Assembly (NCBI RefSeq): GCF_055900595.2
Contig: NZ_CM148325.1
Length of the DNA stretch: 64,000 nt
Reading direction: 5' to 3' (one strand)
Shown here: positions 59,680 through 62,274 of the stretch, piece after piece
How the letters are laid out: each line of letters opens with the position of its first letter
How positions within the stretch are numbered: position 1 is the first letter of the stretch
Position numbers and translations under genes: made by a program
The notes under the pieces: model-generated
Database searches by the model: none
What the model was told of the DNA's origin: nothing
The model's input: the letters and a program-made list of their open reading frames with translations, nothing else

Positions 59680-62274
59680 ATGCATCACTCTGGTTCTGTT
59701 TCTCTTTGTCGTTCCGCAATATCTGTTCTGGTGGCTACAGCGTTATATTCACCCATAGCATTGGCATCAACTGTTGAGTATGGTGAGACAGTTGATGGTG
59801 TTGTCCTGGAAAAAGATATCCAGCTGGTTTATGGGACCGCCAATAATACGAAAATCAATCCTGGCGGAGAACAGCATATAAAAGAATTTGGTGTAAGTAG
59901 TAATACTGAAATTAACGGAGGGTATCAGTACATTGAAATGAATGGCACCGCAGAATACTCAGTATTAAATGACGGTTATCAAATTGTTCAAATGGGTGGC
60001 GCGGCAAACCAGACAACCCTCAATAATGGTGTGCTACAGGTTTATGGCGCAGCGAATAATACTACCATTAAAGGCGGGCGCTTAATTATTGAAAAAGATG
60101 GGATTACCGTCTTTGCCGCTATCGAAAAGGGAGGATTACTGGAGGTTAAAGAGGGGGGATTAGCATTTGCGGTAGATCAGAAAGCAGGCGGTGCGATTAA
60201 AACAACCACGCGGGCCATGGAGGTATTCGGAACAAACCGTCTCGGTCAGTTCGATATCAAGGATGGTATTGCTAATAATATGTTGTTGGAAAACGGTGGA
60301 AGTTTGCGAGTTGAAGAAAATGACTTCGCTTATAATACTACTGTGGATAACGGCGGTTTACTGGAGGTTATGGATGGCGGGACTGCAACTGGCGTTGATA
60401 AAAAAGCAGGCGGAAAATTAATTGTCTCAACGAATGCGCTGGAAGTGAGTGGTACAAACAGTAAAGGCCAATTTAGTATAAAAGATGGTGTGTCAAAAAA
60501 TTATGAACTGGATGATGGTTCCGGGCTCATTGTTATGGAGGGCACTCAGGCAATTGACACTATCCTTGATGAGCATGCAACCATGCAATCGTTGGGAAGA
60601 GATACTGGTACGAGAGTGCAGGCACATGCAGTTTATGATCTTGGTCGGTCAGTGCAGAATGGAAGCATAAAATATTCCTCAAATGCCATATCTGAAAATA
60701 TGGTTATCGATAATGGTCGCGCTAATGTCTGGACTGGCACAATGGTTAACGTAACAGTCAGAGGAAATGAGGGCATTATTGATGCAATGGCGCTGGAATT
60801 AAATTTTTATACACCGGCTACATTTTTAGGTGACGTGGTGGTTTCTGATGGTGCATCTTTAAGAACGCATGGCGCAGTGGATACCAGTAAAGCAGATGTT
60901 TCTATCGAAGAGAGTTTTTGGGCTATTATTGCCGATATCAATAATATAAACCAAAACACCCGTCTCAATTTAGCAAACCTGGTGATGTCAGACGGAACTG
61001 TCGTTATGATGGCTGAGCCAGTGACTCGTTCATCTGTGACGGCAAGTGCGGAAAATTTCACTACGTTGACCACCAATACCCTATCGGGAAACGGCAATTT
61101 TTATATGCGTACCGATATGGCTAATCATCAGAGCGATCAGCTTAACGTCACCGGTCAGGCTACAGGTGATTTCAAAATATTCGTGACGGACACCGGTGCC
61201 AGCCCGGCAGCAGGAGATAGCCTTACACTGGTAACAACGGGCGGCGGTGATGCTGCATTTACGTTGGGCAATGCCGGAGGCGTTGTTGATATCGGTACGT
61301 ATGAATATACCTTGCTGGATAATGGCAACCATAGCTGGAGTCTGGCAGAGAATCGCGCGCAAATTACCCCTTCAACCACTGATGTGTTGAATATGGCGGC
61401 AGCACAACCGCTGGTATTTGATGCAGAACTGGACACCGTGCGTGAGCGTCTTGGTAGCGTAAAAGGCGTTAATTACGATACGGCGATGTGGAGTTCGGCA
61501 ATTAACACCCGCAACAACGTGACCACTGATGCGGGAGCTGGCTTTGAGCAAACATTGACGGGGCTGACGCTCGGTATCGATAGCCGTTTCTCCCGTGAAG
61601 AAAGCAGTACAATTCGCGGCTTGTTCTTTGGTTACTCTCATTCTGATATTGGTTTTGATCGCGGCGGCAAAGGCAATGTCGATAGCTATACCCTGGGGGC
61701 TTATGCCGGTTGGGAGCATCAGAACGGTGCCTATGTTGATGGGGTGGTGAAAGTTGACCGTTTTGCCAACACCATCCATGGCAAGATGAGTAATGGGGCA
61801 ACAGCGTTTGGCGATTACAGTAGTAACGGCGCGGGTGCTCATGTCGAGAGCGGGTTCCGTTGGGTTGACGGATTGTGGAGTGTTAGACCTTATCTGGCCT
61901 TTACCGGCTTTACCACAGATGGTCAGGACTACACGTTATCAAACGGCATGCGCGCGGATGTGGGAAATACCCGCATATTACGCGCTGAAGCGGGAACGGC
62001 GGTAAGCTATCACATGGACCTGCAAAACGGTACGACGCTGGAACCCTGGCTGAAAGCCGCCGTACGTCAGGAATACGCCGATTCTAACCAGGTGAATGTT
62101 AATGACGACGGCAAATTTAATAACGATGTGGCTGGAACCCGTGGCGTTTATCAGGCTGGGATAAGGTCATCGTTTACCCCGACGTTAAGCGGTCATTTGT
62201 CAGTCAGCTATGGCAATGGCGCGGGGGTAGAATCAGCGTGGAATACCCAGGCGGGTGTGGTCTGGACGTTCTGA
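59680..62274 (+). CDS. yejO: Autotransporter (type Va) adhesin-like protein YejO, intact
   Basis: 864-aa ORF with signal peptide, repetitive beta-helical-type passenger (GG..., NNT... repeats) and C-terminal barrel ending ...QAGVVWTF; located at the narP/proL locus. Confidence 0.8.
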   Translation: MHHSGSVSLCRSAISVLVATALYSPIALASTVEYGETVDGVVLEKDIQLVYGTANNTKINPGGEQHIKEFGVSSNTEINGGYQYIEMNGTAEYSVLNDGYQIVQMGGAANQTTLNNGVLQVYGAANNTTIKGGRLIIEKDGITVFAAIEKGGLLEVKEGGLAFAVDQKAGGAIKTTTRAMEVFGTNRLGQFDIKDGIANNMLLENGGSLRVEENDFAYNTTVDNGGLLEVMDGGTATGVDKKAGGKLIVSTNALEVSGTNSKGQFSIKDGVSKNYELDDGSGLIVMEGTQAIDTILDEHATMQSLGRDTGTRVQAHAVYDLGRSVQNGSIKYSSNAISENMVIDNGRANVWTGTMVNVTVRGNEGIIDAMALELNFYTPATFLGDVVVSDGASLRTHGAVDTSKADVSIEESFWAIIADINNINQNTRLNLANLVMSDGTVVMMAEPVTRSSVTASAENFTTLTTNTLSGNGNFYMRTDMANHQSDQLNVTGQATGDFKIFVTDTGASPAAGDSLTLVTTGGGDAAFTLGNAGGVVDIGTYEYTLLDNGNHSWSLAENRAQITPSTTDVLNMAAAQPLVFDAELDTVRERLGSVKGVNYDTAMWSSAINTRNNVTTDAGAGFEQTLTGLTLGIDSRFSREESSTIRGLFFGYSHSDIGFDRGGKGNVDSYTLGAYAGWEHQNGAYVDGVVKVDRFANTIHGKMSNGATAFGDYSSNGAGAHVESGFRWVDGLWSVRPYLAFTGFTTDGQDYTLSNGMRADVGNTRILRAEAGTAVSYHMDLQNGTTLEPWLKAAVRQEYADSNQVNVNDDGKFNNDVAGTRGVYQAGIRSSFTPTLSGHLSVSYGNGAGVESAWNTQAGVVWTF

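Follow-up and report, generated by a model that had tools for sequence, protein, structure and literature searches.

The stretch of DNA studied here (the window) comprises 64,000 nucleotides of contig NZ_CM148325.1 from RefSeq assembly GCF_055900595.2 and contains yejO, a chromosomal gene of Escherichia coli predicted to encode an autotransporter. An open reading frame (ORF) scan of the window found an 864-aa ORF at 59680..62274 on the plus strand, with an ATG start, a TGA stop and no internal stops; the translation ends in ...AGVVWTF. Upstream lies narP, a divergent neighbour on the minus strand, and the gene order narP-yejO-proL-yejM (yejM/lapC) was the same in every annotated region inspected. 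Both this position, from narP to proL/yejM, and the high identity to the K-12 gene identify the product as the orthologue of YejO. The exact 864-aa protein has been deposited as 'autotransporter YejO [Escherichia coli]' (for instance BDI51604.1) and is found on 301 contigs, and the YejO cluster at 90% identity has 16859 members. A comparison of 7321 nt showed 100% identity between the window and AP025754.1. An assembly artefact was considered and rejected, as the same 7.3-kb sequence is present in AP025754.1 and the protein recurs on all those contigs. The yejO of the window is the wild-type, uninterrupted allele of this gene, and the original prediction of an intact 864-aa autotransporter ORF between narP and a tRNA-Pro gene agrees with the ORF scan, with ARAGORN and Rfam, and with Pfam.

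The original prediction also stated that yejO of K-12 is a pseudogene, disrupted or flanked by IS5. In the record of MG1655, yejO (b2190) is indeed a joined pseudogene, annotated as 'adhesin-like autotransporter YejO' and made up of a 67-nt fragment 1, the insertion sequence IS5K (1195 bp, insH8) and fragment 2. When the junctions were read, the left one consisted of ...GCGTTAT followed by GGAAGGTGCG and the right one of ...CACCTTCC followed by TTAT and then ATTCACC. IS5K is placed after nucleotide 67 of yejO, in codon 23, inside the signal peptide, with a 4-bp duplication of TTAT at both sides. It has previously been reported that K-12 yejO carries IS5K near its start codon (PMC11005336), and an IS5 in direct orientation at yejO was described in a study in which PyejO is uncharacterised (PMC11677980). 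The statement that the K-12 gene is broken was therefore correct, as annotation, junction reads and PMC11005336 agree. However, a position upstream of the gene was not, since IS5K lies within the coding sequence. No insertion sequence was found in yejO or its upstream region in the window, both of which are colinear with other E. coli in the alignment; the narP-yejO spacer aligned without indels to K-12 and to strain R32_14_1F, in line with the predicted absence of an insertion sequence upstream of the gene.

When IS5 and one TTAT were removed from K-12 yejO, a clean ORF of 863 codons without any stop was obtained. IS5 is therefore the sole lesion of K-12 yejO, and the uninterrupted gene is therefore the ancestral state. 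The spliced K-12 gene shares its locus, synteny (narP-yejO-proL-yejM/lapC) and domain order with that of the window, and the two are 92.9% identical in amino acids and 94.4% in nucleotides (5.6% nucleotide divergence). The allele of the window differs by one extra codon, by the lack of IS5K and by a segment of ~440 bp that is ~81% identical. An uninterrupted K-12 locus, or a frameshift in the window, would both have spoken against the prediction; the alignment shows an interrupted K-12 gene, and the ORF of the window is without frameshift in a sequence matched by AP025754.1.

To place both states in the species, 5426 complete RefSeq E. coli genomes were searched. A yejO match was present in 5421 of them and at least 80% of the gene was covered in 4280 (~79%). 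The K-12 yejO/IS5 junction, on the other hand, was found in 357 genomes; the examples among the matches listed include ER1709, DH5a and MG1655 derivatives, and a BL21-type strain was without the junction. This distribution bears on the idea that the uninterrupted gene is secondary and arose by precise excision of IS5 or by recombinational repair. Recombination does act on yejO, as its mosaic allele described below shows, but direct support for such an event was not found. The window carries a single TTAT and no footprint, the junction is confined to the small set of genomes above (the three full-length matches listed, ER1709, DH5a and K-12 MG1655, are laboratory strains), and an allele diverged by 5.6% from that of K-12 is not K-12-derived. 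A secondary origin is thus effectively refuted. Together with the clean spliced ORF, the single TTAT and the limited spread of the junction support the claim that the window keeps the ancestral state.

The domain composition of the product is that of a classical autotransporter. Pfam found AIDA (PF16168) in two stretches (E 7e-51), Pertactin (PF03212) at aa 432-556 (E 5e-45) and the Autotransporter beta-domain (PF03797) at aa 603-842 (E 1e-44); these E-values rule out a chance ORF. Among the NCBIfam models, TIGR01414 matched with E 2e-110, and TIGR04415, a strand-loop-strand repeat that is the target of O-heptosylation, matched in three stretches, its 72.8 bits exceeding the cut-off of 30. With 120 homologues as input, AlphaFold2 gave a model whose mean predicted local distance difference test score (pLDDT) was 86.8 and whose predicted template modelling score was 0.71. 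Short regular three-strand rungs extend across residues 29-562 of the model, which is in keeping with the expected beta-helical fold of the passenger, as are the fold matches to Ag43 and pertactin. Across residues 601-863 there are 12 long antiparallel strands. The N-terminus, read by eye, shows a basic n-region with R11, a hydrophobic core at residues 12-26 and A27-L28-A29 followed by S30. In the model, residues 1-27 are disordered (pLDDT <50) and the first strand begins at residue 29. A Sec signal peptide, as expected of type Va autotransporters, is accordingly predicted from the sequence, and by analogy the pertactin-like domain is the probable autochaperone region. The 12-strand barrel, helical linker, beta-helical passenger with an autochaperone-type domain and C-terminal aromatic residue were all found. 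By its modelled architecture YejO is a classical (type Va) autotransporter, for which surface display is predicted. The anticipated signal peptide and aromatic-terminated barrel were likewise recovered, through sequence reading, PF03797/TIGR01414 and the ...VVWTF end. The coordinates of all features are collected in Table 1.

Table 1. Features of the yejO region, in positions of the window.
Feature	Position	Strand	Basis
narP-yejO divergent intergenic region, AT-rich	59361..59679 (319 bp)		215-aa narP model, GC, colinearity
yejO coding sequence, uninterrupted	59680..62274	+	864 codons plus TGA
Predicted Sec signal peptide, aa 1-29 (MHHSGSVSLCR / SAISVLVATALYSPI / ALA, cut before S)	59680..59766	+	sequence reading
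TTAT, site duplicated around IS5K in K-12, empty in the window	59743..59746	+	alignment, MG1655 record, junction reads
Passenger domain, aa 30-562, right-handed beta-helix with short three-strand rungs	59767..61365	+	AlphaFold2, Foldseek, phmmer
Two tandem ~74-aa AIDA-type repeat units, aa 147-221 and 222-295	60118..60564	+	DNA direct repeat, protein comparison
Rare divergent allele segment of the passenger, aa ~300-445	60580..61015 (~440 bp, gene nt ~900-1335)	+	identity profile, blastn
Pertactin-like domain, aa 432-556, C-terminal end of passenger	60973..61347	+	Pfam PF03212; long strands 427-562 in AlphaFold2
Alpha-helical linker, aa 564-593, expected to pass through the pore of the barrel	61369..61458	+	DSSP helix in AlphaFold2, pLDDT >=90
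12-strand outer-membrane beta-barrel translocator, aa 601-864, C-terminal ...VVWTF	61480..62271	+	PF03797, TIGR01414, AlphaFold2
Two hairpins past the yejO stop	62284..62363 (62284-62317, 62340-62363)	+	RNA fold
proL tRNA-Pro(GGG)	62376..62452	-	ARAGORN, Rfam

The passenger had been described as repetitive. This was confirmed at the protein level, where its two ~74-aa units are 50% identical to each other, but they do not form a DNA tandem array. At the DNA level, a direct repeat (D1) is present at 60119 and 60341 with a spacing of 222 nt; Tandem Repeats Finder gave no tandem repeat in yejO, and the degenerate units are visible mainly in the protein. In some genomes, such as that of isolate 2-101, exactly 222 nt (aa 168-241) are missing and an in-frame protein of 789 aa is encoded. 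To judge from the sequences, this loss is consistent with unequal recombination between the repeat units.

Downstream of the repeats, the identity to K-12 drops in the segment of ~440 bp mentioned above. Here it amounts to 79-85% (~81%), whereas elsewhere in the gene it is mostly 95-100%, with 92% at nt 301-450. The 3′ (right) boundary of the segment is sharp, and the identity jumps back to ~99%. Within it, 31 codon differences from K-12 are synonymous and 37 non-synonymous. When the segment was used as a blastn query, 4293 genomes matched, 18 of them at >=99% and 4259 at 80-90%, while none fell at 90-99%. The common allele, from which the version of the window is ~19% diverged, is thus carried by >99% of the yejO-bearing complete genomes. 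In addition, the best match of the entire yejO among complete genomes is 97.6%, and the neighbouring ccm genes are 99.5% identical to their best matches. Mosaic alleles are usual for surface adhesins. From its sequence the segment looks like a cassette that was imported by recombination or maintained for a long time, placed where the passenger is exposed; it is a minor curiosity.

We also searched for a donor of the segment. A search for homologous proteins with aa 296-455 gave just fragmentary proteins of at most 87% identity, and no match came from either of two scans in which back-translated patterns were run against 100,044 species-representative genomes. For the second scan this is probably explained by an E. 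coli representative that is likely a remnant-type strain and by differences at the motif in other species. Should the exposed face of the beta-helix owe a different ligand specificity or antigenicity to the segment, recombination would have made yejO a dimorphic surface antigen. That the segment is a rare cassette, imported from an unsampled lineage or anciently kept, and that yejO is such an antigen, is a tentative reading which we regard as rather unlikely.

The narP-yejO spacer should hold the uncharacterised yejO promoter as well as that of narP. Its length had been put at 289 bp because the longest narP ORF (58713..59390, 225 aa) was taken, which extends 10 codons further upstream than the accepted start. 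The 215-aa NarP model, with a start at 59360, is the one adopted by RefSeq and by independent gene calls made on identical DNA, and the spacer is therefore 319 bp long (59361..59679). Its GC content is 0.39-0.42, that of the spacer plus the 5′ part of yejO 0.39-0.46 and that of the flanks 0.50-0.57. A simple scan did not find a consensus sigma-70 promoter in the spacer, and a scan testing co-regulation with narP found no NarL/NarP 7-2-7 site there. A literature search on control of yejO by H-NS gave nothing relevant. Taken by itself, the AT-richness of the promoter region suggests that yejO expression is low under laboratory conditions and probably silenced in a xenogeneic manner.

Three further observations concern the surroundings of the spacer and of narP. 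An 85-aa ORF (59392-59649, plus strand) covers most of the spacer; it is unsupported by annotation or gene call and probably spurious. The only good match to the NarL/NarP 7-2-7 motif in the window is a near-perfect palindrome, TACCCCGATCGGGGTA, at 46232-46247, which probably belongs to the nap operon promoter. Between ccmH and narP lies a 178-bp insert (~58530-58707) with sequence resembling repetitive extragenic palindromes and bacterial interspersed mosaic elements (REP/BIME), bordered by a duplicated hairpin (58506-58529 and 58682-58705). K-12 has a copy of this insert; in isolates 2-101 and SCU-484 it is missing and the spacer measures 34 bp.

In a considerable part of the species yejO has decayed. 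About 21% of the complete genomes, for instance SCU-484 and Nissle 1917, hold a remnant of ~0.9 kb with ~46-50% query coverage. The remnant is annotated with a frameshift and an internal stop, and the C-terminus with the barrel is gone (in SCU-484 it lies at 1981-2903 of the region compared). One sampled genome has an IS3-family insertion in yejO. A passage of PMC3426408 citing Wells et al. 2010 places YejO in commensal and diarrhoeagenic strains and describes it as truncated in uropathogenic E. coli (UPEC), and yejO was reported missing from ST131 (PMC5654935). The share of remnants agrees with this literature on truncation in UPEC and absence in ST131.

This decay raises the question of whether the ORF of the window is intact while the gene is effectively silent, a decaying and dispensable relic that by luck was not hit in this lineage, so that a 'functional locus' would be overstated. 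Repeated loss, seen in the remnants with their frameshift and stop and in the IS5 and IS3 insertions of K-12 and another strain, would fit such a relic, as would the in-frame repeat deletion in other genomes, the wild-type behaviour of a K-12 yejO deletion strain (PMC11005336) and the lack of a consensus promoter in the scanned spacer. However, full-length coverage was retained in 4280 of the 5426 genomes, and none of the five alleles compared contained a stop codon, the 789-aa deletion allele included. Four full-length alleles were compared from the pertactin-like domain to the barrel, and in three of these comparisons synonymous differences exceeded non-synonymous ones (20:8, 25:11 and 18:8). 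The ratio was weak for the fourth allele, R32_14_1F (16:10), and in the barrel alone the counts were equal for RMDEC465 (8:8) and R32_14_1F (6:6). That the ORF stayed open while its nucleotide sequence diverged by about 6% from the K-12 allele implies purifying selection. We therefore consider it unlikely that yejO is a silent relic.

The intact yejO is the common, ancestral and already annotated and published state, and nothing in the window is unusually preserved. It restates a known fact, recorded both in the annotation of K-12 and in published work, namely that the gene is an IS5K pseudogene in K-12 and intact in most other E. coli. The prediction that the window preserves a functional adhesin locus thus holds for the ancestral, intact ORF but not for any special preservation, since intact genes are the majority; the adhesin function itself would be assigned by analogy.

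Past the yejO stop, the region 62284-62363 folds with -34.3 kcal/mol (z = -5.66), and none of 200 shuffles folded as well. Its second hairpin (62340-62363) is preceded by an A-run and followed by a T-run. From these features the hairpins are likely terminators of the convergent yejO and proL, of which the second looks bidirectional. Integration takes place at the 3′ end of proL (~62376-62391), a site that stands empty in the window. In genomes with the identical YejO protein, the match to the window breaks off at 62381-62391, within the tRNA-Pro 3′ end, where they have either a prophage with capsid E and HDPD genes or a P4-like element with PerC, ProQ-like, SSB and DUF927 genes. This occupation fits the Shigella flexneri gtrIC prophage, which is bounded by tRNA-Pro and yejO (PMC4924310).

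Elsewhere in the window, Rfam matched the small RNA MicF at 36887-36980 (minus strand) and four REP-derived naRNA4 elements, three of which form a tandem cluster; the coordinates given with the latter are 33149-33225 and 45020-45326.

Several routes by which surface-protein genes turn over can be seen together at the yejO locus: insertion of IS elements, loss of a repeat unit, large degradation (in remnant genomes such as Nissle 1917, and in UPEC and ST131 according to the literature) and mosaic recombination in the passenger. The tRNA integration hotspot at proL adjoins the gene and stands side by side with these routes. The allele of the window also offers a clean template for a first functional test of YejO.

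How YejO would reach the cell surface can be outlined from its model and from knowledge of the family. The 29-aa signal peptide would route the protein through Sec, and the beta-barrel assembly machinery (BAM) would insert the C-terminal 12-strand barrel into the outer membrane, with the terminal aromatic residue as part of the beta-signal. The helical linker would fill the pore, and the passenger would be threaded out C-terminus first, the pertactin-like domain nucleating its folding. A beta-helix of ~530 residues would then be displayed on the cell, where it may mediate adhesion and/or cell-cell aggregation. By analogy with Ag43, AIDA-I and TibA, such a role is the most probable one.

Altogether, we give a probability of roughly 0.88 to the reading that the window holds the uninterrupted, ancestral yejO and that it encodes a type Va autotransporter of the AIDA-I/Ag43 structural class, probably acting in adhesion or aggregation. 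Several points weigh against it. The gene is evidently dispensable, as about one-fifth of the complete genomes have a degraded copy and others an IS5 or IS3 insertion, and the promoter scan of the spacer was negative. The confidence of the AlphaFold2 model is low at residues 168-192. The searchable literature gave no experiment on expression, secretion, cleavage or adhesion of YejO, which also bears out the description of its passenger as poorly characterised. Finally, YejO scored 137.7 bits on the Ag43/Cah equivalog NF033177 and 70.6 bits on the AIDA-I equivalog NF033176, both with a cut-off of 1200. With scores so far under the cut-offs, YejO is no orthologue of Ag43 or AIDA-I, and their function is not simply transferable. 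It is a structural relative of the Ag43/Cah family, not a member.

Distant relatives are found in another genus, among the Bordetella proteins pertactin, Vag8 and BrkA. Vag8 (7AKV) was matched by sequence only, over residues 70-861 of the query (E 1.8e-31). The barrel of YejO has a template modelling (TM) score of 0.90 to the BrkA beta-domain 3QQ2, at 22% identity in the fold alignment, and of 0.80-0.83 to the EspP barrel in Foldseek. Pertactin (1DAB) has PF03212 in common with YejO and was a Foldseek match with 17-19% fold-alignment identity. Pertactin and BrkA, together with an AidA-I family adhesin, were also among the other sequence matches in the PDB.

Vag8 binds C1-inhibitor, and Vag8 and BrkA act in host-factor binding or serum resistance. 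YejO might accordingly be a surface-displayed autotransporter with a role other than adhesion, for example one of these two. Vag8 is the only solved protein aligned over nearly the whole of YejO, the barrel is closest to that of BrkA and the pertactin domain is shared with the Bordetella proteins. Nevertheless, the whole-length match to Vag8 mostly reflects the common architecture, and host-factor binding cannot be assumed for YejO from relatives this distant. In sequence as in fold, the passenger best matches proteins of aggregation and adhesion, namely Ag43, the AidA-I family and TibA, and its AIDA and TIGR04415 repeats are typical of that group. A non-adhesion role is therefore improbable, slightly more so than a silent gene, and adhesion or aggregation remains the preferred role. 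The nearest relatives outside the YejO cluster, ~40-45% identical and mostly metagenome proteins with one from Leminorella, added no functional information.

AIDA-I and TibA are glycosylated adhesins of diarrhoeagenic E. coli. They resemble YejO in the combination of PF16168 AIDA with TIGR04415 repeats, and TibA (4Q1Q) matched with E 7e-28. The ~19-aa AIDA-type repeat, the O-heptosylation target of the AIDA-I/TibA/Ag43 group, was found in the YejO passenger. At the locus, no heptosyltransferase gene of the aah/tibC type adjoins yejO, its immediate neighbours being narP and proL/yejM. Ag43 is also without an adjacent heptosyltransferase gene, and this feature does not define the group. The yejO locus belongs to the chromosomal core, whereas AIDA-I and TibA are encoded on plasmids or islands.

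The closest comparison is that with the self-associating protein Ag43 (Flu; PDB 4KH3, 7KOH, 7KO9 and 7KOB), which gave the best sequence match of the passenger (phmmer against the PDB, E 4e-38). The Ag43 passengers 7KOH and 7KO9 were also the top Foldseek matches (E 1e-19 to 8e-20), at ~22% identity in the structural alignment. Unlike in Ag43, no phase-variable regulatory region was identified for YejO. Both proteins, however, combine an AIDA-type beta-helix with a type Va barrel, and the passenger of YejO is near in length to the crystallised Ag43 chains (~545 aa).

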